Source: Deltaproteobacteria bacterium (GTDB taxonomy: Bacteria > UBA10199 > JACPAL01 > JAHFST01). From it: DNA of 64,000 nucleotides. The stretch lies in the NCBI GenBank assembly GCA_023265625.1, contig JAHFST010000001.1:97265-161264 (forward strand), in the 5' to 3' direction. This document shows, piece after piece, positions 4,732-60,866 of the stretch. Positions within the stretch are counted from its first letter, which is position 1. Every line of letters begins with the position of its first letter. The position numbers were made by a program, and so were the translations under genes. The notes under the pieces are model-generated. The model did not search any database. It was not told the origin of the DNA and saw nothing but the letters and a program-made list of their open reading frames with translations.

Positions 4732-4739
4732 GGTGAGTT

Positions 4740-5867: not shown

Positions 5868-5884
5868 TCTTTTTTTGGTGCTTT

Positions 5885-7009: not shown

Positions 7010-7199
7010 TATATTCAGGGGGAAGATACCCTCTCCCCCCTGAGGACCCCCCATCTGGTCGTCACTGACTCATCATTCGCTCCGCTTAACCGGCCGGAGT
7101 AAATCCGTCCGGTTAATGCTCGTTCACTATTGGGGAAAGTGTTGAAAGTGTTTGCTGAAATGAGAATAATCGAGTAGTACAGAAGCGCGGGGGGGCTCT

Positions 7200-8081: not shown

Positions 8082-8083
8082 CC

Positions 8084-22304: not shown

Positions 22305-22331
22305 AGGATAACCATCACTAAATCTCGTGGC

Positions 22332-24599: not shown

Positions 24600-27500
24600 C
24601 TATCTTGTCTGTGTTGTCGTACCGGTCCTGGTGCTCGTGGTCCCGGTCCGGGTGGTGGTTTGGCGGGTTGTGGAGGTGTCTCGGGTGGGGGCGATGGTTG
24701 GTGTACTGGTTGTCGGGGTTGGCGTTGCGGTGGGGGAAACGCTGGGGGCTGCTGTTGGTGCAGTGGGTGCGACGGTTGCTGGAGCGCTGGCCTCCGGAGT
24801 GGCCACTTGAGGGGAGGTTATTGGTGCTGGCGCCGCTGCGGGTGTGGTGGGTGCCACAGAATTTACCGAGAAGATATCGGCTAGCGAATTGATCACCGCT
24901 TGATCGGCGGCGGTATCTACCGAGGTGGAAACCCGGGTGGAGAGGTCGTTGCGAGTTTGTTCCGGGATGGTTGTATCCGCCGAGATGGCTTCCTGGGTGG
25001 CGGTGACGACGATGTCATTCATCTGATCCTTGAGGCTGGCCCCGCCTTGCGTGGCCGCCGAAGAGACCACATCGTTGGCGCTGCTGGGAGCGGCGTTAGC
25101 CGCTGCCGCCTGATCTGTCGCCGCAGTTGGCAGATCTGTGACGGCGCTTGGCTGAGCTGTTACGGCATTGGGCTGAGCCGCCGCCGCTGGGTTGGTAATC
25201 GCCTTATTCGTGGCGGCTTCTGCGGATTGTTTAATTTCCTCGATACCCGCTTTGACCCCCTCTTGAGTTGCTGCGGCAATCGAACCCGCCAGGTCATTAT
25301 TGATCTTGCCTAAGACCTCTTGTTTGAGACTATCTTGTTGTTGCGGGGTGAGATTGGAGGTGGCCTCAATTTGTTTGCTGACATTCGTTTTGATGTCGGT
25401 CATGGCCCTTTGGCTGGTTTCTGCCAGGGCCCGGGCGGTGTCTTCCATCACCCGCTGCATCTCTTGTTGCTGCTGGATGGAAAGGACGACCTGCGGGCCG
25501 GTGGTCATCTGTCTCTGGAACTGCTCCACCACATTCACACGGATCTTCTCCTTGATGGCGGCGTCAATGACCCCGCCGCTGGTACGCAGCGCATTGGAGA
25601 GGTCTTGCAGGAACGGATCTTGGACCTTCTCGGGTACGGCAGTTGTACCGGCCGGGGCCTGGACTTTTTGGTCCAGGTTGCCGATATCCTGGGATTTTGC
25701 GCCGTCCTGGAAAGAGCTCTTCGGGACACCACCTGGGAAGGGGGGGATTGGATCAATGCCCTTGTCAGGTAAGCCCTCTTTTGTATCGATGATAGGGCTT
25801 TTGGAACACGCCGAGGACTTTGCCTCATAGGCCCCGAGGTCGTAGAAGCACCCCTGGGGACGCGTGACCTGGTCCAGATCTAGAATTGGATTATCAAACA
25901 TATACCCCTTGTATTCGAGGACCTGTTTGTATTCAGTTGTTTCAGAGTCCCCCTGGTCGATAGCGATTGAGTTGGCAATATTCTTGAGGTGATAATCACC
26001 CTTTTGATGATCAACGAAGTTTCCTGGGAAGTCGCTGTCGTATCCGAATTCATTTTTCTCCCCAGGGCTGTTTGATGTGATCATGCAGGTGTTCTTGGGT
26101 TCATCGGTTCCGAAGAAGGCATTGTGATGAATATTCTTCAGTCCCGTTATTTCCAGATTCGATGGGTTATGATGCATCGAACACACGGGACCGCTCAGGA
26201 GGTTGTTGAATATCTTAGGCATCGGTATCTTCTGGGTGGTTGGACTATCCTTGTACACCTTCTCAACGCATTGGTCGTATTGCTGGTAAGCGACGGTGTC
26301 GCATTGGTCGAGATATTTCTGGCACTGGAGTGTTTGTTCCAAATAGGGTTTAAGCACTGTTTTAGCATCAGATGACTTGATGGTCTCTGGGCAACCTTCG
26401 GGAGGGATAACAGCCGCAAAGCCAAAGAGATTCATGCAGGATAAGGCTACCCCTGCGTCTTCGAGCTTCTTGCAAGAGGAAATGCCTGTTGCATCGGGGT
26501 AAACGGCGAAGAGTTTCTCGTTTGAGCCAAGAAAGGCATCTCCCTTATTATCCTGACACTGGGAATCAACGGTGTTCTGCAGGAGATCGACGCCCGCATC
26601 CTGCAGCTCAACTCCGTGACAGGTCTTCTTGCCAAGGGCCTTGATCAAGTTGTTGGAAATAACGCGATTGCGGAGACCTGGGAATCCCAGGCCATGCCAG
26701 GAGACACCGTAGAAGTCCTGGTCCGCCTTGGCCGTTGCCTCGATCTTGTTTCGGTCGAGGACGAGGGTGGGGGCGTCTCCGGCCAGGAAGCGGGCGAGGT
26801 CCATGCAGCCCGTGCTGAGGCAGCTCGAAAAATTTTCCGTATCTTTGGAGCCGGGGATCGGACGCTCACATGTTTTACAGGCTGGAAAATCGGAATGTTT
26901 GGGACATTCATCGGGTCCCAACATCCAGCCAAGCTCGATCTGTTTGAGGCATTCGGAGAGGCTTGGAGTGGGTTCCTTGGGCAGGAAACTGGCAAGATAA
27001 TTGTTAGCCCAATCCTTGCAAGACCCTTCACCACGGAATCCATAAGTCTTCACAGCCTTTCCTCCCTCGATAGTATTACCCCGGATCAAAAAATCTAGGG
27101 GGGAGCAGGAGGCGGTTGAGACATAGATCCCGGTGCTGGCAACTAGCGAGGTCCCCGCGTGGATCTGGTTATTTTCCAGGACCGGCTTAGCCCTCTCGAG
27201 AGAGGACGACTTGATCTCCAGGGCGGTGCTGAACATGTTCGGGTAGGATGTGTTGGTGTTTCCTTCGATGGTATTGTCGCGGATCTGTGGCGATGCATTT
27301 TCCCCAATCTTGATCCCGGTCGGGGTGGCTATCGACGTGTCCTTATCCGGCAGATAAGCCAGGGCCACGATTTCGTTATGGGCGAGTGTGGGAGAGGCAT
27401 TGGCAATCGAAATGGGGACGCAATTTGCTCCGAATGTGAATGTGAGAGACTTGTCGGGTTTGAGCGTTATCCGGAAGCCGTCAATCAGGCTGTCCGGGCC

Positions 27501-30500
27501 CACGGGGGAGGGGACCATCGTGCTGTCGATTTGGAAGACATTCGTGTCACAAGAGGTCCCAACGATCTGGGTTGTGTAGCCCTTTTTGTCCGGAAGATTC
27601 GCGATGACAGATAGGTCAGGTTTGTTAGGGTCAACCTTCACATCCATCCCAGCAGCTAGATCGATGCAGAGAGGGCCGATGCAATTCTGTGCTTTCAGGG
27701 TTCCTTTTACTGGGGCCTTTGGTTCGTCTTCGTATTTTACGTACCGCATCAGGCACTGGTAGTTCTTGCTGTCCTGGGTGAACTTCTTCAGTTTGAAGCC
27801 ACCCCAGATTCGGGTTGAGGCCGGTAGCGTCAGGCCCTGCTCATGGTACTCATAAGACTCCTGCACATCGTTCCCTTGCAGAACGATCACATCGTAGGGC
27901 TGTTTGGTGCATGGGGTTTTGCAGGACTCGTAGGATTGTCGACAACTCGACTGCCAGGAAAAGGGACAGGAAATTCGGTCTTCAGTGCACTTTTGCTGGC
28001 AGGGCGCCGCTGCCGTCTGACAAAGTCCCGTTGGACTGTTGAGGCAGGCACCGAAGGCATTGTTGCAGCCTTTTAGGCACGGATAATACGTATCCGCGTA
28101 ACACGTCTTTAGCCCTGACGACAGGGGATCATTGGTGTCAGCGCACTCCTTTTTCATCGGTTGACAGGCCTTGTCACAGGTCTCCTTTGCCTGATCGCAG
28201 GTTGTTGACAGGAATTTGAGGCTGATATCCTTGCACTCTGGTTGATTGGCGCAGTTCTCTGTTTTACAGGTTGACTCCACGACATCGCAGGTGCCTGAGG
28301 TGCCAGCCTTGCAGCCCTCATATTTTCCATCGCAGTTTTGCTGGATCGCCTCGCAGAGGAAGGGGGGGGCATTGTTTTTCTGACGCTGTGTGATTTTGTC
28401 CAACGCATCCTTGAGACTATGGAACGGATTTCCGAGGGAGCCCAATGGTTCGGTAATATCCACTGCCTTATTGTAAGAGTTGTCCACTATGTCCAGCTTA
28501 TCGGGAATAATTTTGTCGATGAGACATCCGATGCCGACACAAGGAACGACCGCTTTTATCGGTGGTTTTGCGGTCACAAAGAAGGTGGTGCGCAGATTAG
28601 TCGGGATACCTTCCTGCAGGAGGACATTGTTGAGTATCTCCGCATGGGTCGGGTCCCAGACGGCATAATCCAACTTCCCATCCTTGTCGGCATCATATCC
28701 ATCCGGCTTATCATCATAGTTTGTGTCGAGGGTAGGGGGACAGGAGATAATCGCACACTTATTGTTGTTGATATCATAAACCTGTCCAGCGGGACAGGTG
28801 ATCTTGGCGGGATCTGTGCAGGTGCCGCTGTAGCAGACGGAACCACTGCTACAATCGTCCTTCTTGGTGCAGCCGGATTCCCCCGGAGACATTTTGCATA
28901 CCCCGAATTCGCAAATACCGGACTGACATTCCTTGGTTGCCTGGCAGGAGCTTCCCGCTGGTGACCCTGGGGGACATTGATCCGTCGCGTCCTTGGGACA
29001 CTTGTCTTCACTATCGGGGATCCCATCCCCGTCGGTGTCAATCCCGTTGGTGCAGGACCCACTGGTACAGGTTTGGCTTGGGGCACACTCAGAGACGGCC
29101 GTGCAGACCTTCTTTGATTTACCGACCAACTGGAAGCGCCCCTTGACCAGGTTCTGTTTGGCTCCGTTGCTCGTCTCGACCGTCAAGAGGGTATTGAGGG
29201 TGATGGGGGCGTCATAGGGTACGACCAAGGTGGACTGATAACCCTTCTCAGGAGGGGTGCCTAGATCGATGCACGCTGATTGGCCAGAGATTGTGACTGC
29301 GTTGTCACTCATCCCCGGATCTCCTACCTCCAGTGTTGCCGCCTGCGGGCAGACGCTCTTACCGTCTCGGTCAAAGAAGCGGACCTTGTAGAGGTACTCG
29401 CCCTGATTTGCCGTTGGTTCAACGGTCGGATAGGTAAAGTATAATTGGTAGGTGTATATCTGCATAGCCAAGCTGACGTCGATGGAATCGGTCTTGGGAT
29501 TGAGTGGGGAACCACCGCCGTAGCCGTTGTAGTCTCCCAGCAACTCGAGGTCGGGAGATACCCCCTTGCCATAGGAGGGCTGGGCCACCTTCTTCGGATT
29601 CTCCTTGTCTCCCTTATTGACATCGGAGGTGAGGGCCGAGACGTCATAGGGATCAAAGCCACCCTTCTTGGCCTGAGCGTTTTTATCGTCATCGCCGTAG
29701 TTTTTGACACCACCCGGATCGACAATGCCAGTACCGGCTGTAATCGCAGAGTCCGGTGAGAGTGTGGTACCGGCCGGAGACCCATCATCCACGACGAGAT
29801 TGATGGTCCCGGCAAACCCGGTCCAACCGGTCTTAACTTTATTGATGGGGATGATGGCCAGATCGACCATCCCGGTGGCGCCCCCCGAGTAGCCCCCGGC
29901 CACCACTAGTTGCTTGTTCGTACTATTGGGGATGAGTATTGCGTTGGCGCTTGGATTGCTGATCCCGGCGACGGGTATTGCCTTTGTGGTGTCAAACTCC
30001 ACGACGCTGGAATCATAGTTGATGGTAAACCCAAAGGTCTTGAGGGGTTTGTCCCCGACGTTGGCCCGGAAGGTGATATTTGGACCGTTTCCATTAGGGA
30101 TGACCGGGACAAAGCGGCCCGTTAAGGGACCCAGATCGAGATCGCCCACGTTGGCGTTCATGTTGACAGCGGCATGGTAGGTCAAGCTCTTGCTACCCAC
30201 AGAGAAGGTCAGTTTCACCGCCCCGTTTTTCTTTGGGGTGAGTTGCAATTGATCTGGTGGAAGGTTGGGGACCTCGGCGGATGGAGCGAGGGCAGGTCCA
30301 TCGTAGGCAGGCAGCGCCAGTTCGTCAATCTTTGTCGTCAGTAAGGATGTTTTGAAGGCGTTCCCATCCCCAGAGGTCAGGATCATTCGAGTCCCATCGG
30401 TGAATTTTCCAACGACCGTTAGGGGGTAGGAGGACTCGGCGACCCCGGAAAGGGTGGTGTCGAAGGCGACATCACCATTTGTTACTGGGAGCGATTCGTT

Positions 30501-33500
30501 GTCGAATCCCTGGAAGCCCTTTTCCTTGGGAACATTGGCACCCAGGTTGGATGTCTTGCCCCGAATGATGAACCCATCGAGGGTCGTGTTATCAGGCTTG
30601 CCTGGTTCAGGCTTGGTCTGGAAGGCGACCTCTTGCTCTTCAACGGTTAGTCCCAGGGTGGCATTGAGTTCCTTCCCAACGAGGGGTGGGAGAAACTTAA
30701 CTAGAATGTCCCCCGATTGACCCTTACTCCCATCGAGTGCGAAGCTGCCCGGCCATTTTGAATTGGAATTTCCATTGACTGGGATAGGTTCCGTAAAACC
30801 AGCGGGTACGGCGAGACTCGCCTTATCAGTTGGCAATTTGGCGGCCTCGTCTCCCCCAAGAAATATCGAAGACCCATCGGTCCATTGACCCGTGACGACC
30901 AGACGTAGCAATTGTTTCTTGTCATTCTGCCCTTCAATCTTTGAGAGGGTTGTATCCTTTACGGCATTGGCAAAGGTCCCATCCTTGGCAGGATTGTATT
31001 GGGGGAGTTTGGCCGGGTCGTAGTCCTCGTAGGTCTGGAGTGAGATCTTGGTGAGGGTATTCACAGGGAGTTTGCACGTCTGTTTCGGGATCCCCAGATA
31101 GTCGGGCTGGAGCTCAATCGTGACCCAGCCACCATCTGATGGTGGTGGGGTGTCTTGGACCTCCACCGTGTTAGTACTGGCCAAGACCTTGGCCGGTTGA
31201 CCGCTCAGATCCTTTCCGTCAATCGTCTTGATGAGGTTGGCCCCTTCCGTGACGACGTACTTGATCTTCGCTGGGTCCACCACATCCTGCTTCACTCCCT
31301 GTTTCAGAACCAGTGGACTGGTTGTTTTGAGAGCCAAGAGTTTCGCAGAGGCATCCTCGGTGCTGAGTGCCAGGGGATCACAGCCAGTGAGGGTTGCCGC
31401 AGGTGCCGGGATATTGATGGCGACCGTTGCGGCACCCTCTATGCCCTTGCCAAATTTGGCGGAAACATTTGTGGTCTTTTTGCCTGAGGTGGCCGGATGG
31501 ATCATGAGTTGGCCGGAGGCATTGACGTCGACTTTGATCACGGAGGGATCACCGATGGTAAGCAGTGCCGGTTTTTGCTGATAGGCCGTCAGGAAATTTG
31601 CAGTGACGTCATAACGGGAGTTGTCCTTGGTTATGAGCAACAGGGTAAGAGGGGTGCTGTCATCCAGAGAGGTGAAGGTGTTGAAGGCCATGGCCTCCAA
31701 GGTGTTTTTCTGGCTGACGTCGCCGGTCAGGGCCCCGAGGGTTGCGGGTGATTCGGTCTTGGTCATTTTCACGTGGGCTGGGACGACTAGGAGGGATTTA
31801 AAATTCTCACTCTCTGCTGAGACGGTCAGCTCTTTGGCGGCAATGGTTTTGTCTGCAACAACGATGCGGATCTCGGCTTTTCCCGACTCGAACGGGCTGA
31901 TGAGTCCTGCCTCCGTCACCGTGAAGACAGCTTTATCCGGGTTCTTGAAGGTCACATAGGGTGTGAGATCAAGGCGGATCTGGCCGTTATTCCAATAAAG
32001 ATGCGCCTGCACCTTGGGGTAGGCATCGTTCCCGTCCAGGTTGAGACCCTTCAGTTTGGGGATGGTGTCTGTTTTGGAGTCGGTTTCGACGATCAGCTTG
32101 GCCGGGTCTATCGAGGTGACATGGACTTGCATGTTGCCAACCGATTTTCCCGCATAGGTGGCGGTGAGATTGGCATCGCCTTCTGCCTTGGATTTTACCT
32201 CACACTTGACATCTGTCCCGACGGCGGTTGCACCGGACTTGTCTTCACACTTGAGGTTGTTTAGGTCGGCCCCTGTGATGAGGTTCATGCTTCCATCGTT
32301 TTCCACCTTCAATGTCCTGACCACGGTTGTTTGTGGGACACTGGCAGGGAGGACCAGTCCTGGAATCTTATCGTTCGAGAAGAGTTGGCCATTTTCAACA
32401 AATCCCAGGATGCCGCGAACTTCTTTGTTCAGGACGGCGATATTTCCCGTACCCGGTCCGGACTTATCGGCAATGAGTAGGGGTTGTTTCTCTCCCGAGA
32501 GCGACTTCTGTGCCGGATCGGTGTAGTACAACTGATTGGGTGTTCCTGAAATTGCGGTCGTCGCCGGGAGCGGTGTGGCTGTGGATTTAACCCGGAGGTG
32601 GAGGGTCGCGACTTTTTCTTTATTCGATGAGATCAGGAGATTGCCTGTGGCTGCGGAGGTGAAGGTGATCGGGGTGTTGAGGCTGATACCCTCAATGTCC
32701 CCGAAGCCTGTCGCAACCTCGATGGGTTTGGTTGCCTTCGGATCAAATTCGATCATGGTGCCATCAAATTTGATTTCAAACTGGAATGCTTGGAGACCCT
32801 TGCCCCCCGTATTAACGAAGAGGTCGGCAGCGAAGGATTCACCGGCTGTGAGGGGACGCTTGGGTAGTTGAATCCCAGCCTGGCCAGCGGTCAATTGCAG
32901 GTCCCCAACGATCCCCTTGAGGGTGATGTTTGCCGGGTCACCCGATGCTTGCAGGCTGTTCCCGTCGAGTTTTAACTTGACCGAGACCATTTTATCCAAA
33001 CCTGGTTCAAAGAGGGAGGGATCGAATTTGATGTCGCCACTGTAGATCCCCGGTTGTTGAGTCACACTGAGGGGGTTCGAGAAGAGGGTATTGCTATCCT
33101 TGGTGATTTCAGCCTCAGGGAGTAACCCACCCTGGTAAGGTCGGCCATAATCGTCGGTTACCAGGGCAAAGACCTTGACGGTGGGCAGATCGGAGTAGAC
33201 GTCGCCACGGGCCAGGATCACCTGGGCCCGGGTGGCGGCGCTATTCAGTTTGATCTCCAAGGGCTTGCTGTCTGCGACATTGCCACCTGCGCTGGCCTTG
33301 ACGGACACAGTCCCGGGTAAGGCCAGGTCTTCGAGGAGTCCCTGGTAGGTCCCGCCTTTGCCGGCTTCCTGCCACCAGAGTCCATCCCAGAAACCGCCGA
33401 CGAAACCGTCGGTTCGGCTTGGGGTAAAGGAAACATGTGCCCCACTGACCGGGAGGGCACCCTCTAGGAGATTACCCAAAATCTTGATGGTGACTGGAAG

Positions 33501-36500
33501 GGTGGACTGCTGAGCTTGAGCGTCCTTGGCGATGAAATTAAGATGGTAGGTTGTTCCTTCAGGCGCCCCCGTGGTGTTCCAATTAAATTGACCTGTCGAT
33601 GGGACAAAGGCTGTGTCTGGGACCTTGTTCGTGTCGCTTGCAACCTCGTTCCAAGAGAGGCCGGCATTACCCGCCGCCACCTGGAAGGAAACGATGGCCC
33701 CTGCGGCGACCTCGTAGCTGGTCTGGGTGGGCGAGGTGAAGACGGGGAGTTGATTCTTGATTGTCGCATCCGGGCAGAAGCCGTCCACCGGTGGTTTTTG
33801 ATCCGGGCAGGAGGCAGCCATGCAATTGGGTGGTTGCGCAGCATCACAACATTGATTTGCATCGTAAGTCTTGTCGGCAGGGCAGCTGGTGGGTATGCAA
33901 CCGGCCTTGCCAGCGACGACCTTGCAGGTGGTTCCGTTACAGGTGATTAAGGAACAGTCTTCGGGGGGCTGGCAGCTGCTTCCATCAGCGTTGCAGCACT
34001 GCTTATTGATCGGGTCAAACTGCATGGCCTCCGGGCAGGTATCATTTTTTTTGCATTGTTTGGTGTCAGGCTGGTAGGTGGTGTCTATCGGACAGGTGCC
34101 GCAGTAGTCGAAGAGACCGTCGGTTGGGATGCTGTTGTCGATGGGATTCAGGCCCCCCTGACAGCCTGTTGGATCCTTGCTGCAGTCACCGCTGGCATCA
34201 CAACACTTGGTGGCCTGTCCGGCCGCCCCTTTGCATGTCAGCCCCACATCACACACGATTCCGTAACAATAGTCGACGGCCTCTGGATTGATGGTGACCT
34301 TTTTGACCGGACCTGAGCTTAGGTATTCTTCCATCCAAAGATTTTTTCCTTGGGCGTCAAATTGACTGATCCTGACCTTGACGTTGAGTGTGGGCAATTT
34401 GGGATTGAGATCCGATTTGATAAATTCGTAGACCCCTTGTGCCGTGTCCGCTGTCCCCACCAGCTTTGCCTCGACCGTCTGCTTCAAGTCTTCGAGGATA
34501 AACTCCACCTTGATATTTTTGTTGATCGATTTCGAGGGTTTTGCGCCGGGGCCGCTTACCGTAGCCGTCAAACGAATGGTGCCGAGGTTATTCTGATAGG
34601 GGTATTGAGCGTCAACATCGACCCACAAGGCATTCCCCACCAGGATCTTTTGCAGGTATGACGTGTCGTTCGAATCGACGGCTCCGTTAAAATCGGCGTC
34701 GGCATCGTAGAGGGGAAATTTTTCCGGGGTGACACTGTTGGTCACGATGGCGTTTTGGAGGCTCTGGATGTCATCGGAGGAGAAGCCTTCGATACTGTTC
34801 ATATCCGCTCGCCACCCGCCCGGTGGGTCCATTTCGCCCATCCCGGCGACAATCGGTCGTCCCTCCACGGGGATTGCTGCGCCGATGGGGTTGTTATCCG
34901 GATCATAGAGGGCCTTGATGATCCCTGACAGCTTGGTGACCTGTTTTTCTTGCTTGGTCGGGATGAATTTGATCTGAGCAATCTCCAAGAGGCCTTGTTT
35001 TTTGTTGAGCCCACCGGAGAAGGTGCTGACGATCTTGATGGTTCCAGTATCGGGGTCGGCACCCGGTGTGAAGGTGTAAGCGGAATTTTGGAGATCCTTC
35101 CCAGGGAGGATGGAATTACCAGGTTTGCTATAATCGGCGATCTTGAGAACGTCCTTATCGTATAGGATCTGGATCTCAAAGTTCCCGAGCGGTGTTTTGT
35201 CGGTATTAACCCGAACGGGCAGCGTAAATTCGCCGCCGGACTGGTCGGGGAAGGGGACTCCCAATTCTGGGCCGATGTCGATATCGCCCACGGTGGGGGT
35301 CTCGTTGATGGCCAGCTTGAGTTCCTCTTTGGTATCCAAGGTGAGTTTGTTGCTTGGATTGATGTTGGCACTGAGCTTGACGGCGCCATTTTCGTGTGCG
35401 GTGAGTGTCAGTTTGTTGTTGGCCTCACTCAAGGTGGCAAAGTCCTTCAATTGATACTGATTAGGGGGGCCGGTCTTCAGATCACCGGCCGTGACATCCA
35501 GGAGCCCCGGGACTTCGATGGTTCCATCGTCACTACGGACCAAGAGGGCCTGGGTAGCGTCCTTGTCATACTTGGTAATAATGTTGACGAAGTGTGGACT
35601 TTCATCGGAGGCGCTCAAGGTCTTATCGGTCAGGGGAGTGACCTTGCTATTGCCCGCGGTGAATTCGTTGCTTTGAATGTGGAGCTCACTGATGTCGTCC
35701 GGTATGGGATCGATTGTGAGCTCCAGGGACTTTTTCTTGTTATCGTAACCTTGCCAACCCAAGGCAATGGTGGCCTTGTTTTCATTCGTATCCGGGATGC
35801 CGCGCACAAACATCCTCGGTTTGTTGAGGGTTGCCCCACCGGTCACATCCAACTGGAGTGACACGTTGTCCTTGAAGGGGGTGAGGTCGAGGCTGTCACC
35901 GTCGGTCAGAATAGCCTTCGCCCAGAGCCGGACCCATTGGTAGGCGCTGGATTTGGCGATCTTGTGCAAGGTTGTTTTCGCTGGTGCGTTGTCATTCTCG
36001 GGGTAGGGGGCGAGGGTCTTGAGCTCAAACCCTTGGAGTGTCACAATATCAATAGTCAATTTACGAGCCAGTCCCATAGCCTTGATGTTTAGGGTGGCGG
36101 AACCGCTATTTTTGGCTCCCTGATTCATCATCAGGGTCAGCGCTCCGTTAAGATCGATAAAAAATTTCGGGCTACTGACATTGGGTAAGGCGCTCATGGT
36201 AGGTTCGGCCTGCTCGGTGACATCGATTTCCTTGGATCCAAATTTGGCAAAGATCTTGAAGCTTTCTTTGGTGGAGTACTGTTTGAGGATTGTTACAGGA
36301 TCATTCGGCGACAGGGCCAGTTTTAGATTTTTTCCTACCGGAATGATCTCGTTCGTTGGGACCTTTTTCAGGATTAGCTCTCCAGCGGGAGGGATGACCT
36401 CGACCAAGGTGTCACTATCCGTGGCAATTATTTTTGTTGGGTCGTTCTGGTCCGGCAGCTCCGCCTTCAGGTGGACTTTGCCTGGCAGGGTGGAGCTTAC

Positions 36501-39500
36501 CTTTGTTCCTTCGATTGTTACCACCCCCGCCGTTTCACCGTCTTTGGGTGTGATTGTGATCTTCCCTGAGGTGACAAGTTCCGTCAGGTCCTGAGGGGTA
36601 TCTTTCGGATCATTGGTCAGTCCCAGGACCCGGAGCGTGGTACTTTGGCCGATATTGGAGAACACCGTTGTCACCTTGGAGCTCAAGTTCTTTTGGGTGG
36701 CATCCTTGCCGTCGCTCAAGGAGCTGCCCACCGAGGCCGGGACGACGAGGTTGAGTTCGGTTATGGTTTTTTCGGCGGCGCCCACCGTGACATAGAACCC
36801 GGCACCCAGGCCGGCGACGGGATTCTTCATTGCGATGATGGATTTGCTGGAGGGTGTGGTCGCGTCAGGTGCCCAGAGCAGGTGGTTGGGCTTGTCAATC
36901 TTCACCACGCCTTCTTTGAGGATGTCCTCCGAATCCATGCTCTCCAGCTCGACCTGGTCTGTCAGGTCCCGAATGGTTCCATCATCGTAAGAGGCTTCGA
37001 CATGGTAAGGGCTCTTCTGGAAAGGTGTCCCAGGAAGATTGCTGATCTTGTCGAGATCCTGATCGGCAATCTTGAGTTGGAGGTCTTTGACGGGGTGGAC
37101 AATGGTGGTGGTTGTGGCGGAGCAGCCACCGCAATCCGGATGAGTGATGGTGAACTGAGCTGTTTGAACATCGACAACTCCCTTCTGCTTAACGGTATGG
37201 AAAGACAATGGTGCCGCGTCTGGTTGCATCGCAGTTGACGGGGTTATGGCCACTGCATCTTTGAGATCCACCAGTGTGCCATTTTCACTCAAGCCTTTGA
37301 CAATGATATTGAAGCTTGCCGGATTTACATCATCGTAGATCACCGGCCGCGAACTCCAGGCGAAGAGTTTGGTGAGGACGGCTTTCTTGATCGTAACCGA
37401 GGCTTGGCCCTCTTGGAATCCGTTTTTATCACGAACCTTCATGGCGGTTTCTTGCGCGAAGATGGGGGTGTTGCCCGTTAGTATCTTTTCGTACAGGCTG
37501 GTCACCTTTCCGGAGAGGGTGGTATCGAGTGTCGCCAGATCCATGGCCTTGGGACGGAAGGTGATCTCTGCCAAGGTGATGGCGGGATCTTTCAGATTCA
37601 AGGTGTGCGCGGTAAAGCCGACGTAGCCCACGGTCTTGGGTTGGAATTGCAATTCTTGTGAGCTATTGTCAGTAGAGTTGGGTAGTTTGGTCGCAAGCTT
37701 GATGAAATCAAACTTAGCTTTGTCGAAATCAACCTGAGCCTTGAAGTTGTCGATCGTCTTGCCGGCGGGATTTAACAAGATCACCGGCACCGTGAATTCC
37801 TGTCCGGCGAAGTTGCTTGTCGTTGGGAAGACAGGGCCGAAGGGGGTCTCAAAATAGACACAGGTCTTGCCTCCACAATCAGGTTTTGCCGGTTGCTTCT
37901 TGGTGGTGATGTCCGCGGTCTTGTTGGGGATATTGATGTTGAACGTCAGTTTTCCATCGCCATTCGGCAGGTTGAATTGATCGCTTTGTGGATCGACTGA
38001 TAAGAGTGATGGACCGAACCCTGATGGATCGGTCGTCAAGAACAGTGGTTGGCCCCCTATGACATTGGCTGGAATCACCTTCCCTTTGCCGACCGGTTGT
38101 TGATTGCCGCCGAAAAATTGAGTCACGAGCGGGGTCGACAAGATATTTTGATACAGGGTGTTGCGGCTCACACCCAACTCGACGCTCGCAGGGTCCGGGG
38201 AGATGGCATATTCCTGGGCGATGGAATTGGGGCCGCCTATCACGGTGGCGCCGGCCTTCCCCATCCCCGCGGGGACGAGGTTGATGACCTGACTGGCGTA
38301 TGTACCATCGTTATTATCGCTAACGAGACCGGAGGATTCGCCGACCAGGTCCACCCCTTGGGCCGCCTCGATCTTGTTGGTGCCGGTCGTCAGCTTGGCC
38401 CCCTTGACCGGCTCGCCTGAGATTGTGTTATCACAGACGTCGCCGATGTTATCAACATCGCCATCCAACTGATCGGCGTTGGCATTTTGAGGACAGTTGT
38501 CCTTGGGGTCGGTGACACCGTCCTTATCGGTATCGAGACCCAGCATGCACTGGCCGGAGTTTTCAGCAGGTTTTAGGTTGCAGACTTGATCCTTGGGGCA
38601 TTGGCTGTCATCTTTACAAACGGTATTTTGGTCGCAGGCATCGCCGATACCGTCTTGATCCGAGTCCTGTTGTTTGTCGTTGAAGACGTAGGGACAATTA
38701 TCGCAGAGATCCCCCAGGCCATCTTGGTCTATGTCCGCCTGATCCGGATTGGCAATCTGAGGACAGTTGTCCGTAAAATCTGGGATCTTGTCCTGATCAT
38801 AATCTTTGACGCCGCAGGCGTCCCCAACCCCGTCTCCGTCCGAATCCATTTGGTCAGGATTGGCAACCTTTGCACAATTATCACAGGGGTCACCGATGCC
38901 ATCTTTGTCTTCGTCCGCCTGATCCGGATTTTTCTGTGCGACACAGTTATCCGTGCTGTTGGAAAATCCATCTCCGTCGGTGTCAAGGACGCAGGCCATC
39001 TTCTGCGGATCATTCACCTCACCGGCTGCACATTGATAACAGAAACCTTTATCCGTGTTGCACTGGCTTCCGACGGCGCAATCTAACGGGACGTTGCAAG
39101 TCGGTTTGCAACCCTTCACACTGAGGTCGCATTTCTGCTTGGCACCGCATTGGGTGTCCTGCGTGCACGAGGGTCCATTCTTGCCGGGGATGGTGATCGT
39201 TTGCCCAAAGTCAAATGAGGATACACCGTTGGCCATGGTGGAATCGACATGGACTGTGAAGGGCACTATCTTGTCGTTATCGAGATTGTCCGGCAGGGGG
39301 ATTATTTTTTCACCGCTGATGGCATCGAAGTTTGTTGAATCGAGAGTGATCCCGTTTAAAAATTGAATGAAGTTGTCACCGGTGCTGAAGGTCAGTTTGA
39401 CGTTGTCCGGGACCTTGTTTTCCGTGTTGGCGACGACCACTTTTAGGGTGTTGTTACCGGGTAGCCCCTTGATGACATCCGCGGTGACAAAGTGATAGGC

Positions 39501-42500
39501 CTTGCCGCTGATTTTGAGCCCGTAGTAGACGTCGTTGATATCCACCCCGTTGTTGTTGTAATCGCCTTGCGGTTTTAAGTTCCCTACCCCGCCAATGGCA
39601 TCTCTCAGGGCCACAATATCATCGATGTCATAGATCCCTTTGCCATCGTAGTCTTTGAATGCCGTTGGGTCGACGAAGCCGGCGGCGGCCGTCAGCGGGT
39701 TTTCATAAGTCTTTGCATTGGTAGCAACCTTTGAAGTGCCGGTAAATTCTGTCACCGGGTTTTGCGCGGGATCATCGGTCTTGGTCTGCGCTAGGAAGAT
39801 AAGGGTGCCGAGGTTGATATCATTGCCAGTGGGGTAAGGTTCCGCTAACGACCCATGGAAGATTAATTCCGCAGTTTTGTCCTTTGCAACGCCCTGTTTG
39901 TAAGGGGGAAGCTCTGCGGTAATCGTGCCCGCAGGTGGGTTTTTGATGAGCAGCTTGGTCGGGTCTGCCGGATCCGTGGCCATTTTGAACATGTCTTTGT
40001 CATAGAAGAGGTGGATCTCAAAGCCCTTGAGTTTTTCGTTGCCTACATTGGCACGGAAGGGGAGGAGTGCGCTGCCACCCTTAGGAAAGATTTCGACAAA
40101 ACGTCCCGAGGGTTTTCCTAGATCGACCTCACCCATGCCAGGTTTGAGGTTGATGGCCATTGTGAAGTCTTGCATTGGGGGTGGGATTGGTTTGGCGGCA
40201 TCGCCGGTATCATCCTTGTTAGGATCGATCGTCCAGGTGGTCTTCAAGGCCCCGTTGGCATTTACCATGACCTTCCCGTCAGAGAATACGGCGGCCGGCG
40301 TTGCCTTCATTGTGGTTCCCGCAAATTGGATTTCGGAAGAGGAGACATTGAGGAGAGCTGTCCCGATCGGGTTGCCCTTGGTTATGAGCAGGGCCCGTGG
40401 ATTACCTGTCTTGCTCAGGTTATTGGCATCGACCCGATCCGAGCCAAAGGTGGCAAAGGCCCGCAAGGTGACGGTCTCTCCCTTGATGGCCTGGACGGTG
40501 GCGTCAAATTTAACCTCATCGTTGGTGGGATTGTTTTCCACCTTCGCCTCGCCGGAGAGTCCCAGATTGGTGATTTGGGCATGATAATTGCTGTCAATCT
40601 TGAGGGTTGTCGTCTTCTGGTCTTCCGGGATTGCCGGTGAATTTGAAATGATTGCACTGATTAAGGCCGCTCCATCATTGATGGGTGTCAAAAGGTAGTA
40701 ATCGGGCCACGGAAAATCTGGTTGAATGATATTCTCAATATTCAGAAAACCCGGGGGTATTGACCACTGAGGAACTCCGATTTCAATTTTATTGATTGCC
40801 TGGGGACCCAAGTGGATCTTTGTGTTGTCCGACCAAGTCCCCTCGAGGAACATCCGCACCTTTTGATAGGTCTTGGTATTTTCGATATAGGAGAGGTAAC
40901 TGTCTTCCACCTTGTCATTGAAGTTGCCGCTGTTGAAGTCCTCGTAACTCTTGATGGCGAGTCCGGTCAATGTCATGACATATTTATTTTCACAGAGGAC
41001 ATCCGCCACATCGCTGTGGATCTTGATTGTGAACTTTCCTCCTTTTGCGTCTGGTGCGGCCTTCAGAAGGCAGGTCTTTAGGGCATTTTGGTCAATGACG
41101 GAGTTGCCATCTTCTACCACGCTACAGGTCACCTTGGTGCTGTTGTTAGGCAGTGTGGTGTTCGAGTCGGTCAGTAAGATTTGGAGTTGTCGCTCGGCAG
41201 GGAGTCCCAACAGCATCTTGGCTGGGTCATTGATCGCCCGGGCGATGGGGCCGCAATTATCAGATACGGCATTCATCGGATCCAGCTTGATGATAACCGG
41301 TGAGTGGGTGGTTTGTCCCACTAGGGATGCATCCACATAGACCGTGTTGTTGGGATTGCTCGTTGGTTTCAAGACCTGGAACAAGAGGGGATTGTTGACA
41401 TCTTTTGCTGCCAGACTGGTGACATCGTTGGTGCTGATGCCACCCTTTCCACCTGGTTTGAACAGGTCTTCGGGAAGATCTCCTTCTTCCGTAATGATGG
41501 GGCTATTCGGGTCTAGCGGGTTTTCTTTGTAGGTCAATGTCCCCAGCACCCTAACCTTCATGACCTGTTGATACTTGTTGAGGACATTGGTGACCGTTGC
41601 CCCGCCTCGGGTGCTGCCAAAGGTCTTATCTGCCAACGAATTTAAGGTGACTGCCTTGGCGGAGGGTTGGACGACCGAGCCGGGGGTTACCACCTCCATC
41701 TTGGTTAAGATCAACGGATTGGCTGGATCGGTGGCTGAAACGGTGATGGGGAGGGTGGCGATCGTTTGGGCGGAAATTTCCTTGGTATTAGCCCGGAGTT
41801 TTCCATCCTTGCTCCCGGCGGCGGGACCTGTGACGACTTGGAGGAGTCCCTGCTCCGCTTTGACATCAATGCCCCCCACCGGTTGAATATCCACCTCATT
41901 GATGAGATCGATGACAAGGTCACCTCCCGAGATATTTTTCATCTCGGGGACCGTCCAAGAGAGGTGGAGCCGAGCCGTCTGGAAGGAATCGGTGCCGTCG
42001 ATCTTTTGCAGGTTGGTATCGCTTGCCGTCAATTTCACCTCGTCGGGATTGTCCCAGTTGGGTGTGATTGTCTTGACGAAGATCTTCCTAAATTCAAAGG
42101 TTGATTCGGGATCGATCGGGGTTTTTTTGTAGGAGACAATCAGCTCTGCGGTACCCGATTTTTTTGCCTCGGTCTGGAATTCTCCCTTGCCGGGGTCGGG
42201 GATTGTGATGCCTATCGTAGGTGTAAAAGAGGTATTGGTTGCCGCAAAGTTCAAGGCCTCTCCGGCCGGGGCGGTGATCGAATCATCCGACCGGATCAGT
42301 CGTGTGGCAATGGTTCCCTTCGTTTGATTGAGCGGTGCCGCTGCCCCCGGCACAAAGACCAAGAAAGGATCCGAGGCCCAGGCAAAAAGACCAACGACCT
42401 CCGGTTTGGCCAACGGCAACTTTCCTTCTGCGGTTGTCGAGCCCGTAAAGTCGGCGACCAGCAACGCTTGTTTCTCGCCATCCAATGAGACCTGGACGCC

Positions 42501-45500
42501 CTTTTTACCCGCGAGTGTGGTGATGTGTCCTCCGAATTTTGCTACCAGTGGAGGATTTTCGCCTTTAACGACCTTGAATTTGAGCCGGGCCATTTCGAGG
42601 GTCTGGGGGCCGGTTGGTTCGGTGCTTCCTTCCAGATAGGAGTTGAATTTGACGGATTGATTAAAAAGGATATTACCCTGGGCGTCTTTCTCCTCGGCAA
42701 TGTCAACCTTATGTCCATCTACCTTGGCAAAGTTGACTTTTTGGATATCTTTTCCGTTACTAGTCGCTTGGTATTGCAAGAGATCCTTGTTGAAGTAGAC
42801 GGAGATATCAAAGCTGGTGAGGTTGTCTCCCTCCTTGAGGTGGATCATCACCGGCACCTCGATTTCGTAGCCGGGCATTGGGAGCCGATCAGGGAGCTGG
42901 AGGCCGGCGAAACTCTTCTCCTGGCCGGCATTGTCCTGCGGCCAGGCGAGCTTGGCAACCTTTGGTTTCAAGGTGACCGCCGTGGGTTGCGTCGCCAGGG
43001 CCTTGCCGATGGCTTCCAGGTTTACAGCAACTTTTTTCCCTTCACCCACCGCCAATTTTTGGTACGTGGTGTCGAAGTTGACCTTGGCCTGGTAGATTCC
43101 CTTGTCTGGCGTGGGGCTGGCAGCAACCGAATCCGCACCGACCTTGAGGGAGGGTGGGTTGGAAACGGCCAATGGTTGTCCCTGCTCATCGGTCAAGAAG
43201 ATATAGGCGGTGAGGTTCGAATCATCTTCGTAGACCTCGCTTCGAGAGAGGGTGAGATAACTCCGGGCTGGGTTATCCGTGATAGTGAATGGGGCCGACG
43301 TGCTGTCTCCCGAAATTTTGGCGGTGACCTGCCCAGCCCCTGGGGTGGTGATATCGAGAAAGAGGGCGGTGTAATTCCCATTAAAGCTATCGCTATCCTG
43401 GAGGATTCCCTGCCAGATTCCGGGGAGGATGGAGAAATCAACCAGGGCATGTTTGACCGGGGTTCCGTCTAGGGCGGAATCCTTGATCACTTCGATGTCG
43501 ACTGTAACGTTTACCTTGAGTTTGGTGACATCGTCATGCACCGAGAAGGTGGACTGGTAGACACCCGCGGGTGTCTGGTCGGTTGGTGCCCAGGTGTAGG
43601 TGTTTGTTGCAAGATCAAGCTGGGATCCTGGTGTGGCGGTGTTGTCGACCACCGAGTAGGTCAAGGGATCGCTTTGATCATCCTTGGCCTTCAACAGAAT
43701 CGAAAGGGTGCTTCCCTGGGAGACGGTGTATTTTTTGCCGAATTCGTCGGGCCAGTACGGGGGGGTGTTGCTGAGGTCACCCGTGCAATCGCCGACTCCA
43801 TTGAAGTCTGGGTCTAAGCATTTTTGTCCCGCGGCGCAGCCATTAGGATTCGGAGGCTGAATTGACGGATCGCAGGTGCCCCCACCGAGGCAGACGCTAT
43901 TGTTGACGCAGGTCTGGCCATTTGGACAGCCGGACTGGCTGTCGCAGGGCTTGGGGGGCATACAAACACTATTCAGGCAGGTTTCTCCGTCTGCAAACTT
44001 ACAGTCGGTGTTCACGCTACATCCCTTGTTGGGGCAGATGATCTGGTCCCCCACTTGTTTGCAGGCCTGGCACTGCTGGCCATCGCAATACTGACCCTCC
44101 TTGCAGTCGGATCCTTCATCACACGTGATTCCGGGATCGACGCAGAGTTTGTTGACACAGACCTGCGGGGCACATTGGCCATTGTCTTGGCAGGAGGGAG
44201 GGGCCTTGCAGAACCCGTTCAGACAAATTTCGCCATCCTGGCAAATATCGGTGGGTTTGCAAGGTTCATTGTCCTTGAGCTTGCATTGATTGCCTTGGCA
44301 AATTTGATTGGCGTTGCAATCGCCATTGTCAGCTGCGTCGCAGACTGATCCAACATCCGTGCAGGTTTTATTGACACAGGTCTTGCCGAGGCCGCATTGA
44401 TCGTTGTTGTCACAAGGTGGACCGGGGATACATTGTTTATTCTGACAAATTTTACCGACATCGCAATCGCTGGTCTGCGTGCAGGAAGGCGGACCGTTGG
44501 GATCGACGTCGAAGGAGGTGAGCCCGATGGTGTTGGAACCTTGCAATCCCTTTGCCTCGCGGAAGGCATTTTCCTGTTTGGTGTCTCCATTCTTCTCTAG
44601 GGTACGGACGACGACGGCCACTGGGATATTTTTCTCAACGGCACCGAGTTTTTCCGCCGTGACACCGTAGCGTCCTCCTCCCAGGGGTTTCGCCTTGACG
44701 TCGGCGAATTGAGGGCCGGCATCGGGTTCTTTGCCAGCGTCAGGATAGACCCAGTTTTGGGCGTTGCCAGAACCAATCTCAAAGAAGACCTCCGTGGTGG
44801 CCGGATCCGGCGGGAGCTGGACGGACTGGGCATTGAAATCTCGGCTGTGGAGTTCCACCACGAACTGGGCCTTGGTGTAATCGTTATTGTAGGGGTAATT
44901 AACTATCGGTTTGGCGACCCCCGTGGTCGGGTCGATCTCCCCCGTGACAAAGTGGGTGGCCCCAACCCCCATGCGGTTGAGATAATAGGCGTCCTGCCAG
45001 GTGAGGTCGCCGTCGGTGTAGATATCGTAATATTTGAGGAGCGATGGATTGGCGATCAGGTTATTTTTTGCGTCGGTCTTGGTGGAGACATTCAGGGCCG
45101 CGGCGGCATCGCTGATGTCTACTTTTGGAAACTTGCCTTCCTCAAAGAAGGCATCGCCAAAGAAGGTGGTGGGGTCGATGTCACCGGCGCCGGCAACGAT
45201 TTGTTGCACATCTTTTGCGAGCATTGGTTGGCCATCGGGCGCCACCACTTTTTCCAAGCCGCGGATGGGACTCCAATTGGCGGCCTTCTGGTCGAGGGCC
45301 GCCTTGGTGATGAAATTGATGTCAAAGAGGGAGAGTGCGTCGTTGGGGGCGAGTGGGGTGGCATTTAAGAAGCTGACCTTGATGCCCGCCAAACCTTTCC
45401 AATCTTCTGGAATATCCGAGTCGTTGGTTTGTTGTGAATTGTCCCAATACTCACAGGCCAGTGAACCGGAGAGGCCCTTTGCCAAGGTAATGGCATTGGA

Positions 45501-60500: not shown

Positions 60501-60866
60501 GGGTAACCAACAAAAACCAGCCAAACATTGTTCCGAGGCACGACAATCGCTGACTTGCTTACAGGTGCGAGATCCCTCACCTGGATCACACGCAGAGCCA
60601 ATTCCATTGTTATTTAAATCGCTTTGTTCCGAATTTGGGAGGAGGGGGCAATTGTCCGTGGGATCGACGATACCATCGCCATCGGTGTCATTTTTGAATT
60701 CATTAGTCCCGATGATCTCGGACCCGGGGTTTTGCGCGTTGTCTGAACCACCGTCTTTCGAACAACTACAACCGCCCCCTTGGGCGGACATCTGTCCGGA
60801 GAGGAAGAGAAAACCGTTCCCCAGTAAGAACAGCAATAAAATTTGTCGTGCTATCCGTGCTCGCAA
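24600..60866 (-). CDS. Giant secreted modular protein, 12,088 aa. Signal peptide, cysteine-rich repeats, thrombospondin type-3 Ca-binding repeats, many cohesin-like and Ig-like beta-sandwich modules, dockerin-like modules, a C-terminal right-handed beta-helix, a Q-rich coiled segment and a Pro/Thr-rich tail.
   Basis: Single uninterrupted 36,267-nt frame. TTG start with RBS. Domain motifs read from the translation. Confidence 0.9.
24603..24900 (-). repeat. Low-complexity Pro/Thr/Ala-rich C-terminal tail of the giant protein. No LPXTG, PEP-CTERM or RTX motif.
   Basis: [15 protein letters not shown]...[19 protein letters not shown] at the end of the ORF. Confidence 0.7.
25815..27700 (-). other. 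Right-handed parallel beta-helix (PbH1-type) domain of the giant protein, ending with a DLGAYE motif
   Basis: [25 protein letters not shown] and NRVISNN rungs. Terminal [10 protein letters not shown]. Confidence 0.6.
27950..29110 (-). repeat. Cys-rich knot 7 with thrombospondin type-3 repeats
   Basis: C-codon-dense stretch. [17 protein letters not shown] and [15 protein letters not shown]. Confidence 0.6.
33770..34280 (-). repeat. Cys-rich knot 6 (no TSP3 repeats)
   Basis: [16 protein letters not shown]...[14 protein letters not shown]. Confidence 0.6.
34625..34860 (-). other. Two-segment dockerin-like Ca-binding module: (GF)[13 protein letters not shown] and [24 protein letters not shown]
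   Basis: Reverse-complement codons read directly. DxDxDGxVDxxD loop followed by a helix, twice. Confidence 0.55.
38430..39200 (-). repeat. Cys-rich knot 5 with a thrombospondin type-3 repeat cluster (at least 6 repeats)
   Basis: [37 protein letters not shown] and similar repeats. Confidence 0.7.
39510..39700 (-). other. Two-segment dockerin-like module: [22 protein letters not shown] and [18 protein letters not shown]
   Basis: Reverse-complement codons read directly. Confidence 0.55.
43780..44510 (-). repeat. Cys-rich knot 4 (no TSP3 repeats)
   Basis: [40 protein letters not shown]... Confidence 0.6.
48960..49870 (-). repeat. Cys-rich knot 3 with a thrombospondin type-3 cluster
   Basis: [40 protein letters not shown]... 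Confidence 0.7.
54430..55170 (-). repeat. Cys-rich knot 2 (no TSP3 repeats)
   Basis: [27 protein letters not shown]... through ...GSCQLP. Confidence 0.6.
58670..58762 (-). other. Example A-type cohesin-like module core ([31 protein letters not shown]). At least 5 further copies follow later Cys-rich knots.
   Basis: Pattern LPxRPLxPGETFxVxLxVNT...F.F.I.FD recurs through the protein. Confidence 0.5.
59680..60700 (-). repeat. Cys-rich knot 1 with flanking thrombospondin type-3 repeats, at the N-terminus of the giant protein
   Basis: [25 protein letters not shown]. About 10 CxxxxDCxxGxxC units. [22 protein letters not shown]. Confidence 0.7.

Follow-up and report, generated by a model that had tools for sequence, protein, structure and literature searches.

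Few bacterial proteins exceed 10,000 residues, and for most of these the functional ends lack annotation. The stretch of DNA analysed here (64,000 nucleotides from an uncultured bacterium, hereafter the window) carries on its minus strand an open reading frame (24600..60866, stop codon included) for a protein of 12,088 aa, and the question that it raises is what stands at the C-terminal end of such a protein and what that end might do. An earlier, sequence-only reading had proposed an effector-like terminus made up of a beta-helix, a coiled coil and a low-complexity tail; the strings that it quoted are all found in this frame.

The giant protein and its genomic setting

The product, with a mass of 1.2 MDa, contains TSP type-3 Ca-binding repeats, cohesin domains, Cys-rich repeats and super-repeats of ~1,700 aa; its C-terminal ~1,700 aa are free of internal repeats. 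When the full 12,088 aa were scanned with Pfam, the families found were Beta_helix, TSP_3, Cohesin, Big_1 and DUF7107 and no others. The gene is also called in two assembly collections (ENA ERZ27296333, on a 342.7-kb contig, and Logan SRR14366772), as proteins of 12,078 and 12,088 aa. At the N-terminus there is a hydrophobic, signal-like segment, residues 4-28 being the strongest hydrophobic segment. The sequence GGGCSCS beside it is kept in a 6,646-aa relative, P0001; GGGC does not fit a canonical lipobox, and ~10 residues separate the Cys from the end of the hydrophobic core.

Housekeeping genes and genes for pili and secretion neighbour the giant frame; the pilus/secretion locus is 10 kb away from it, with unrelated genes between. 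Amongst the genes of the window is one for a secretin, because of which the host bacterium is probably diderm. Genes for T1SS, T9SS, sortase and exosortase are absent from the window, and none for ABC, MFP or TolC proteins was found there. The window and the locus of another relative, L085, each have an AAA_14/DUF4143 ATPase downstream, which gives an appearance of synteny; with only ~21% identity between the two proteins and a different relative strand in each case, the sharing is probably coincidence.

Giant proteins of a 'Dockerin-type' class, encoded by very long genes and bearing TSP type-3 Ca-binding repeats and dockerin, have been described in Omnitrophota (West-Roberts et al., bioRxiv 10.1101/2023.11.21.568195). 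The window protein resembles these in its TSP type-3 repeats, in its cellulosome-type modules (dockerin there, cohesin here) and in the type II secretion/type IV pilus-like locus near the very long gene. It differs in closing with a beta-helix and a hydrophilic tail, and the nearest relatives of the GspE-type ATPase (63-67% identity) are found in MAGs labelled Pseudomonadota and Deltaproteobacteria rather than Omnitrophota.

A beta-helix interrupted by three insertions

Homology and structural modelling indicate a right-handed parallel beta-helix, interrupted by three loop insertions, at aa 10,759-11,681 (25824..28592; minus strand, as for all features below). This module begins with a conserved 'R..FFV' and closes with 'YDLGAYE'; together with the tail behind it, it makes up the last ~1,330 residues of the protein. 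Pfam PF13229 (Beta_helix) scores 28.9 bits / 30.5 bits (E 3.3e-7) on the whole protein, over its gathering threshold of 25.9 bits, and 24.3 bits on a shorter slice; the match lies at aa 11182-11270 (27057-27323). The predicted model superposes on solved members of the right-handed parallel beta-helix (pectin-lyase-like) fold, which upholds the fold named in the sequence-only reading, the model being of low confidence outside ~270 residues. A single-sequence AlphaFold prediction of aa 10799-11690 was of no use (pLDDT 34.7). The match to PF13229, a family of PbH1 repeats with the pectin-lyase-like fold, covers only ~90 of the ~920 residues of the module, and three large insertions break the helix; among the five aligned relatives, the Beta_helix model is matched (E<=0.1) by the window protein alone.

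The region had earlier been taken to start at aa 11,056 (window 27700), and homology moves the start of the module ~900 nt upstream, to ~aa 10,759 (window 28592). The earlier boundary left out the conserved N-terminal cap and the largest of the Cys-rich insertions. The N-terminal cap (28356..28592, aa 10759-10837), an 'FFV' strand and a helix, is kept in all three full modules, the helix being predicted in the model at low confidence. It is followed by insertion A (27906..28355, aa 10838-10987), in which 150 aa hold 22 Cys; the corresponding site has ~75 aa in P0001 and ~20 aa in L085, from which the insertion is lineage-variable. The first part of the coils (27024..27905, aa 10988-11281) contains 'YDVIVLQG', 'TRIWGGFK' and PbH1-like 'ASPxIxxNxI' coils, and reaches a pLDDT of 70-87 for aa 11148-11281. 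Insertion 1 (26769..27023, aa 11282-11366; 7 Cys) is predicted to be helical, again at low confidence, and in L085 its site holds roughly 250 aa of low-complexity sequence rich in Gly and Lys. The second part of the coils (26523..26768, aa 11367-11448; pLDDT 57-78) bears the motifs DRNkI, F.G..W, NRvisNNlI, C.G and NTvD..C, which are invariant in all five relatives. Insertion 2 (26226..26522, aa 11449-11547) has 6 Cys, and most of it (~87 aa) is without counterpart in P0001 and L085. The last coils and the C-terminal cap (25824..26225, aa 11548-11681; PKIFNNLL, NIHHNaF, DYHL, AIDqG and D.D...RP....YDLGAYE) are the best-conserved part, with 37-42% identity to the protein of locus L085 (P0002).

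The module thus has a conserved cap at its N-terminus, PbH1-type coils (about a dozen) that carry an Asn ladder, and a closing motif of choice-of-anchor Q type, with 46 Cys in all. The Cys-rich insertions noticed earlier are borne out by the counts given above, and a three-way alignment shows that the three insertions, Cys-rich in the window protein, differ wholly in length and make-up among the three relatives that cover them. What is conserved among the relatives is for the most part Asn of the ladder, Gly, Pro, Cys and residues of the caps; this conservation analysis is weak because three full modules and two fragments are the whole known set.

Relatives of the module

The family is very small, with five matches among 1.84 billion representative proteins. 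A scan of metagenome contigs seeded on YDLGAYE gave one locus, L085, and no relative came from a genome contig scan or from a first metagenome contig scan seeded with the module. Word-indexed homologue searches were empty for both the window module and the P0001 segment; with the alignment as query, the single match was an unrelated, generic beta-helix protein. Sequence and profile searches of the PDB with the module gave chance matches only.

In P0001 the order of module and tail is the same as in the window protein. Lack of conservation of this region relative to the rest of the protein would have spoken against the proposed domain; identity between the two proteins is 25-27% in the C-terminal region and 30.6% over the body. 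The C-terminal region is therefore about as conserved as the body, and the objection fails.

The closing motif

DLGAYE occurs once in the 12,088-aa protein, at aa 11676-11681 (25824-25841). The NCBIfam model NF041518 (choice-of-anchor Q) scores 19.1-19.5 bits at aa 11631-11682, under its curated cut-off of 25 bits, and matches five of five family members at E<=0.1 (best 1.6e-5), in each case at the D-x-G-A-[YF]-E end. Positions 21-57 of the 58 in the model are matched by the module's last ~50 residues (DYHL...AI..G...D.D...RP....YDLGAYE), and in both cases the motif forms the close of a beta-helix that belongs to an extracellular protein. On these alignments YDLGAYE is assigned as the C-terminal motif of choice-of-anchor Q, closing the helix, in agreement with the earlier view of DxGAYE as a conserved cap. 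No paper naming the NF041518 domain was found in the literature searched. The name 'choice-of-anchor', as explained for the A domain of this kind (bioRxiv 10.1101/2023.03.06.531300), refers to proteins exposed at the surface whose anchor is something other than the domain so named. The present family departs from this pattern in that no sorting signal follows the domain: the window protein and P0001 carry a tail (407 aa here), and the other relatives stop right after the domain.

The tail after the cap

The 407 residues after the cap contain one Cys, near their start. A Pro/Gly/Ser/Lys-rich linker (25632..25823, aa 11682-11745), with the last Cys of the protein at aa 11687, has an analogous Pro-rich linker in P0001. 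Next comes an Ala/Gln-rich amphipathic helical segment of ~160 aa (25152..25631, aa 11746-11905), which includes SIQQQQEMQ at aa 11796 and is weakly alignable to the P0001 tail. Its Gln content peaks at aa 11782 with 17 per 100 aa (at most 13 in the rest of the protein), and its hydrophobic moment at 100 degrees (z 4.3 versus shuffles) shows amphipathic alpha periodicity. A coiled coil had been proposed here and found no support in a crude heptad test of a/d positions: the best window reached 0.40, a value attained by 105 of 200 shuffles, and Gly and Pro residues break up the helices. An Ala/Ser/Thr/Asp-rich segment follows (24852..25151, aa 11906-12005); across its boundary with the helical segment runs a 7-aa repeat unit, NAVTAQP, for which the DNA has a 21-bp tandem repeat at 25127-25178. 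The segment grades into the Thr/Pro/Ala tail that ends the protein (24603..24851, aa 12006-12088; 36% T, 18% P, 17% A). The description of this end as low-complexity and PT-rich was correct, in that P, T and A make up 71% of the last 83 aa versus 24% protein-wide, and every other 83-aa window with its start before aa 11,900 stays below 60%.

The reported lack of known sorting signals (LPXTG, PEP-CTERM, T9SS CTD or RTX) was also confirmed by NCBIfam and motif searches. At E<=1 NCBIfam gave no sorting-signal model, only choice_anch_Q and one stray match; RTX and [VI]PEP motifs are lacking, the whole protein has no GG.G.D match, and the only two matches to LPxT[GAS] are internal, at aa 2959 and 4510. 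There is no hydrophobic stretch after aa 11600 (best 19-aa hydropathy 0.93). The relatives P0002, P0003 and P0004 end 2-50 aa past D-x-G-A-[YF]-E, without any tail, so that the tail is best seen as an add-on of the two giant family members that the module does not need. These two observations argue against the earlier idea of the tail as an anchor.

Possible roles of module and tail

The TSP_3 and cohesin domains, the super-repeats, the N-terminal hydrophobic segment and the 46 Cys of the module together suggest a long surface fibre. Such a fibre would be stiffened by Ca2+, would use Sec for its export and would be attached to the cell by its N-terminus or close to it (this anchoring is a guess), with the beta-helix as its far end. 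The beta-helix would be a rigid scaffold showing variable, disulfide-braced loops to a target surface or polymer, by analogy with the beta-helix adhesins pertactin, Vag8 and PfbA; the tail would be a flexible hydrophilic extension, possibly O-glycosylated, and neither an anchor nor an export signal. We put this picture of a distal binding tip with a flexible tail, the likeliest of those considered, at slightly less than an even chance, the fold and the context being its whole basis. Loop insertions also shape the substrate grooves of beta-helix polysaccharide enzymes, which counts against it. Unlike Vag8 and pertactin (Bordetella autotransporter passengers), UpaB and PfbA (Streptococcus pneumoniae), to which identity is only 10-14%, the window protein has no autotransporter barrel and no LPXTG, and its domain ends a 12,088-aa multi-repeat protein. 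Unlike the T1SS RTX giant adhesins, it lacks GGxGxD repeats and has an N-terminal signal-like hydrophobic segment.

That the beta-helix is instead a catalytic carbohydrate- or cell-wall-active domain (a lyase, hydrolase or epimerase) at the fibre tip, as the effector-like label implied, is possible, if on the unlikely side. Half of the fold neighbours of the model are polysaccharide lyases, epimerases, hydrolases and depolymerases; adhesins (Vag8, PfbA, UpaB, pertactin) are as frequent among them, and these non-catalytic proteins use the fold equally well. With Pfam at E<=10, four slices gave PF13229 only and no PL, GH or NosD family, and no family-specific model for PL1/3/6/9, GH28, AlgE/AlgG or NosD/CASH was matched in Pfam, NCBIfam or PDB profiles. 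Nor was there a match to a tailspike family. The DPH or [DN]P[HY][DE] motif of the AlgE/AlgG type is absent from the module, and the invariant positions look structural, belonging mostly to the ladder and caps. In lacking both a sequence-family match and a DPH-type motif, the module stands apart from AlgE4/AlgG epimerases, PL6 alginate lyases, GH87 and phage depolymerases. Capture of a phage tailspike or depolymerase by the host, or a prophage origin of the region, is extremely improbable and effectively refuted at the sequence level: the module has no PHROG match (the tail gave a stray 10-residue match only, E 0.07), tblastn against 50,697 phage records was empty, the neighbouring genes are housekeeping and pilus/secretion genes, and the module is collinear with non-phage giants. 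A phage origin was rejected on the PHROGs and tblastn results.

It could also be supposed that the beta-helix is a structural end-cap or folding nucleus with no ligand of its own, like the autochaperone beta-helix of autotransporter passengers. This we consider improbable; no autotransporter beta-barrel or TPS domain was found in any segment in the Pfam scans of the whole protein, a 920-aa domain with 46 Cys is elaborate for a mere cap, and three relatives end with the module, as would suit a functional tip. There is a similarly small chance that the Cys-free tail is a new sorting, retention or secretion signal, either an anchor embedded in matrix or envelope or a C-terminal export signal. Evidence for this includes the same order of Pro linker, Ala/Gln/Glu/Leu-rich helical segment and Ala/Thr/Pro end in P0001, the sole other giant relative, the short basic stretch with which both proteins finish after '...APTR', and the lack of any known signal where choice-of-anchor proteins usually have one. 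Against it, the order is kept and the tail sequence barely so (pairwise E 0.02-0.2), there is no hydrophobic segment, three relatives have no tail, a signal-like segment is already present at the N-terminus, and the window is without T1SS, T9SS, sortase and exosortase genes.

A bolder form of the binding-tip proposal, drawn by analogy and held to be a long shot, is that the module is the recognition tip of an undescribed class of giant surface fibres tied to pilus/type-II-secretion-like machinery in an uncultured lineage. Its rapidly diversifying, disulfide-braced loops, borne on the conserved scaffold, would choose a partner cell, prey cell or polymer, as phage receptor-binding proteins do, and the Cys-free helical and Thr/Pro tail would be a new retention or matrix-embedding element in place of the C-terminal sorting signals usual in choice-of-anchor proteins.

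Implications

In itself it is no surprise that a giant adhesin-like protein should have a beta-helix at its tip, or a low-complexity tail. Here, the end of a protein of more than 10,000 residues has been given a fold and clear boundaries. The family is a near-orphan, with five matches in 1.84 billion representative proteins and none among solved structures, and is therefore a new branch of the beta-helix surface domains. Its conserved scaffold and three variable loops make the loops obvious candidates for specificity. The ~920-aa module is a tractable piece for expression, and work on it would tell whether giants of this kind act by adhesion, by digestion or by both.

The beta-helix module and its relatives

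The feature lies at the 3′ end of one ORF on the minus strand (window 24600–60866) encoding a giant protein of 12,088 aa, and its C-terminal module (aa 10759–11681) is established as a right-handed parallel beta-helix. The Pfam Beta_helix model (PF13229) matches aa 11182–11270 with 28.9–30.5 bits, against a threshold of 25.9 bits, and classical ‘ASPxIxxNxI’ coils are visible in the sequence. AlphaFold gave a pLDDT of 34.7 from the single sequence; with a five-sequence alignment it gave a pTM of 0.50, and the beta-coils, which are separated by helical insertions of low confidence, reached a pLDDT of 70–87 (aa 11148–11281), 57–78 (aa 11368–11448) and about 50 (aa 11545–11597).

The module belongs to a sequence family that is nearly an orphan: among 1.84 billion representative proteins, an exhaustive HMMER scan returned five matches only, and no relative of the module was found in 185,579 species-representative genomes. 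A protein of 6,646 aa, P0001, is genuinely related to the giant; it is collinear with aa 182–5554 (30.6% identity), then with aa 10636–11456 (26.7%) and aa 11537–11859 (25.3%). From these identities the module is about as conserved in P0001 as the body, and is thus not a region that lacks conservation relative to the rest of the protein. L085 came from a metagenome scan that used YDLGAYE as its seed; this ORF is cut at its N-terminus, has at least 1,554 aa and aligns collinearly with aa 10455–11681 of the giant. In the three-way alignment, the module starts with a conserved ‘R..FFV’ strand and a ‘G...PF..L...L..I..RQ’ helix at aa 10,759 (window 28592), about 900 nt upstream of the point at which a reading of the sequence alone had begun the feature.

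The DLGAYE string noted in that reading lies at aa 11676–11681 (window 25824–25841) and is the sole such motif in the protein. The module closes with DYHL...AIDqG...D.D...RP....YDLGAYE, a segment that in the giant, as in all four relatives, corresponds to the C-terminal part of NCBIfam NF041518 (choice-of-anchor Q). The giant scores 19.1–19.5 bits against a 25-bit cut-off, so that it resembles this family but cannot be assigned as a member. The term ‘choice-of-anchor’ denotes surface-exposed proteins that have a sorting signal, which can be of several kinds, and in which the domain does not itself act as the anchor, a definition taken from the description of the A domain and not of Q (bioRxiv 10.1101/2023.03.06.531300); no mention of the choice-of-anchor Q domain was found in the literature searched.

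Between its start and this cap, the module, which contains 46 Cys, is shown by the alignment to be a conserved scaffold with variable insertions. There are three insertion sites. Insertion A has 150 aa with 22 Cys in the giant, about 75 aa in P0001 and about 20 aa in L085. Insertion 1 has 85 aa in the giant, and its equivalent in L085 is a Gly/Lys-rich low-complexity stretch of roughly 250 aa; here (L085 ~3000–4000, plus strand) a poly-Gly, Lys-rich sequence, GGGGGGGPRPGGGGG...KKDKGSSKSKKPVKKNK, replaces the Cys-containing helices of the giant. Insertion 2 (aa 11449–11547) is largely unique to the giant, with about 87 aa that have no counterpart. The invariant residues sit in the coils between the insertions and are mostly ladder Asn, Gly, Pro and Cys, together with those of the cap. 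Polar positions among them are R11372, W11390, R11401, D11434, H11582, Y11625 and H11626, besides the TRIWGGFK stretch. Once the insertions are trimmed away, 587 alignment columns are shared.

The C-terminal tail

The tail that follows has a single Cys (aa 11687) and no anchor. It begins with a Pro/Gly/Ser/Lys linker (aa 11682–11745) and an Ala/Gln-rich segment (aa 11746–11905), which are followed by an Ala/Ser/Thr/Asp-rich stretch, the start of which is straddled by a 7-aa tandem repeat, and by a Thr/Pro/Ala end. The underlying 21-bp repeat (window 25127–25178; 2.4 copies, 79–84% matches) encodes the heptapeptide NAVTAQP in the Ala-rich part. All strings quoted in the sequence-only reading were located in the ORF, SIQQQQEMQ at aa 11796. 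The Thr/Pro/Ala tail that it described does extend to the stop codon: the final 83 residues are 71% P+T+A, versus 24% for the protein as a whole, and 60% is not reached in any other 83-aa window beginning before aa 11,900.

The Ala/Gln-rich segment had been taken for a probable coiled coil. Gln peaks locally at 17 per 100 aa, the highest in the protein. The hydrophobic moment of the segment at 100 degrees is above that of shuffled sequences (z 4.3); in a crude heptad test, 105 of 200 shuffles scored as well as the segment, which Gly and Pro residues interrupt; it is better described as amphipathic helices with no demonstrable coiled coil. The stated lack of a known sorting signal stands, as no NCBIfam sorting-signal model matched at E ≤ 1, no [VI]PEP or RTX motif is present and LPxT[GAS] matches are internal only. 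Nor does the tail contain a hydrophobic stretch, the top 19-aa hydropathy being 0.93.

In P0001 the parts of the tail follow one another in the same order, although the tail-to-tail alignment is weak (E 0.02–0.2 for the tails alone). L085/P0002, and the further relatives P0003 and P0004, have a stop codon 2–50 residues past D-x-G-A-[YF]-E, within their contigs. The tail thus does not form part of the module but is appended to it in the two giant members.

The giant gene and its neighbourhood

In two assemblies, one from ENA (ERZ27296333; 342.7-kb contig) and one from Logan (SRR14366772; 39-kb contig), the downstream ATPase gene recurs with a product of 12,078 or 12,088 aa encoded ahead of it, so the giant gene is not an assembly accident. 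Its body is secreted, Ca-binding and repetitive (TSP_3, cohesin). At the N-terminus (window 60747–60866, minus strand; aa 1–40) a hydrophobic segment is followed some 10 residues on by GGGCSCS, an arrangement shared by P0001; this could be a non-canonical lipobox or a conserved mature N-terminus. The body consists of super-repeats of ~1,700 aa with roughly 30% identity (window ~29900–60300, minus strand; aa ~200–10300), for example around aa 1400, 3200, 5000, 6800, 8480 and 10130. Compared with P0001, the giant has about 5,100 aa of additional super-repeats and is otherwise equivalent, which suggests that it grew by duplicating them whole. Cohesin domains (PF00963, 62 bits) lie at window 28701–40700 (minus strand), and the cut 5′ end of L085 (3–182, plus strand), which reads ...FTFEIHYEPDVV, looks cohesin-like. 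The G+C content steps from 0.57–0.59 in the 5′ third of the gene (window 46000–60000) to 0.52–0.55 in the rest (24000–46000).

The neighbouring genes are chromosomal. CoaBC is usually one fused protein; directly upstream of the giant, coaB and coaC are separate minus-strand ORFs (window 60995–62268) that overlap by 4 bases, with the DFP domain at 60995–61708 and the Flavoprotein domain at 61705–62268. Two ORFs have no Pfam family at E ≤ 0.05, one of 244 aa (15355–16089, minus strand) and one of 541 aa (62337–63962, minus strand), the latter in the most G+C-rich stretch of the window (0.61). The window has no tRNA or Rfam match.

Downstream lie genes for an AAA_14/DUF4143 ATPase, a Zn-dependent phospholipase C, UDG, a GGDEF protein, SpoIID, QueA and IspH. 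Such an ATPase gene is found just beyond the beta-helix-ending gene at both loci with a visible downstream region (window 23227–24534, minus strand; L085 6764–7933, minus strand); the two ATPases are ~21% identical, their relative orientation differs and their co-occurrence is probably chance. The phospholipase C homologue (PF00882, 74 bits; 22290–23243, plus strand) lies about 1.4 kb past the giant gene’s 3′ terminus and shares 17 bases with the 3′ end of the ATPase gene between the two.

At a distance of 10 kb from the giant gene’s 3′ end there is a complete MSHA-like type IV pilus/type II secretion cluster (window 21–14452, plus strand). It encodes a GspE-type ATPase, a GspF platform protein, four N-methyl (pseudo)pilins (one GspH-like), a PilX_N protein, an AAA_22 ATPase, a TPR protein, PilM/N/O, a secretin and an SLT-TPR transglycosylase. 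This secretin-bearing cluster suggests a diderm organism, and the closest relatives of the GspE-type ATPase (63–67% identity) are in MAGs labelled Pseudomonadota and Deltaproteobacteria. The window contains neither T1SS nor T9SS genes, and no sortase or exosortase gene. Giant genes of Omnitrophota have been reported to adjoin similar pilus/T2SS-like loci, and their products, like the protein described here, have TSP3 repeats (bioRxiv 10.1101/2023.11.21.568195).

Function of the module

The main rival to the preferred reading, a distal binding end, is the enzymatic tip proposed in the sequence-only reading. This fold is just as characteristic of polysaccharide lyases, epimerases and depolymerases, and the Omnitrophota giants have been proposed to combine adhesion with degradation of cell-surface polymers (bioRxiv 10.1101/2023.11.21.568195). 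However, no enzyme family was matched with any sequence method used, a DPH-type motif is absent and the conserved residues look structural, and we regard an enzyme as rather unlikely here. There is a small chance that the tail bears a new sorting or retention signal, and a similarly slight one that the beta-helix is a purely structural, autochaperone-like cap. A phage origin is scarcely credible, as PHROGs gave no match for the module and tblastn none among 50,697 phage records.

What the sequence-only reading observed is thus borne out, except for the start position and the coiled coil; its interpretation is supported in part. The module is a surface domain built on a beta-helix, closed by a choice-of-anchor-Q-like cap and bearing hypervariable insertions; in the giants only, it is followed by a long anchor-less tail. 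A terminal beta-helix or a low-complexity tail alone would be no surprise to a specialist; what the module offers is a clearly delimited and expressible end of a very large protein that lacks annotation.
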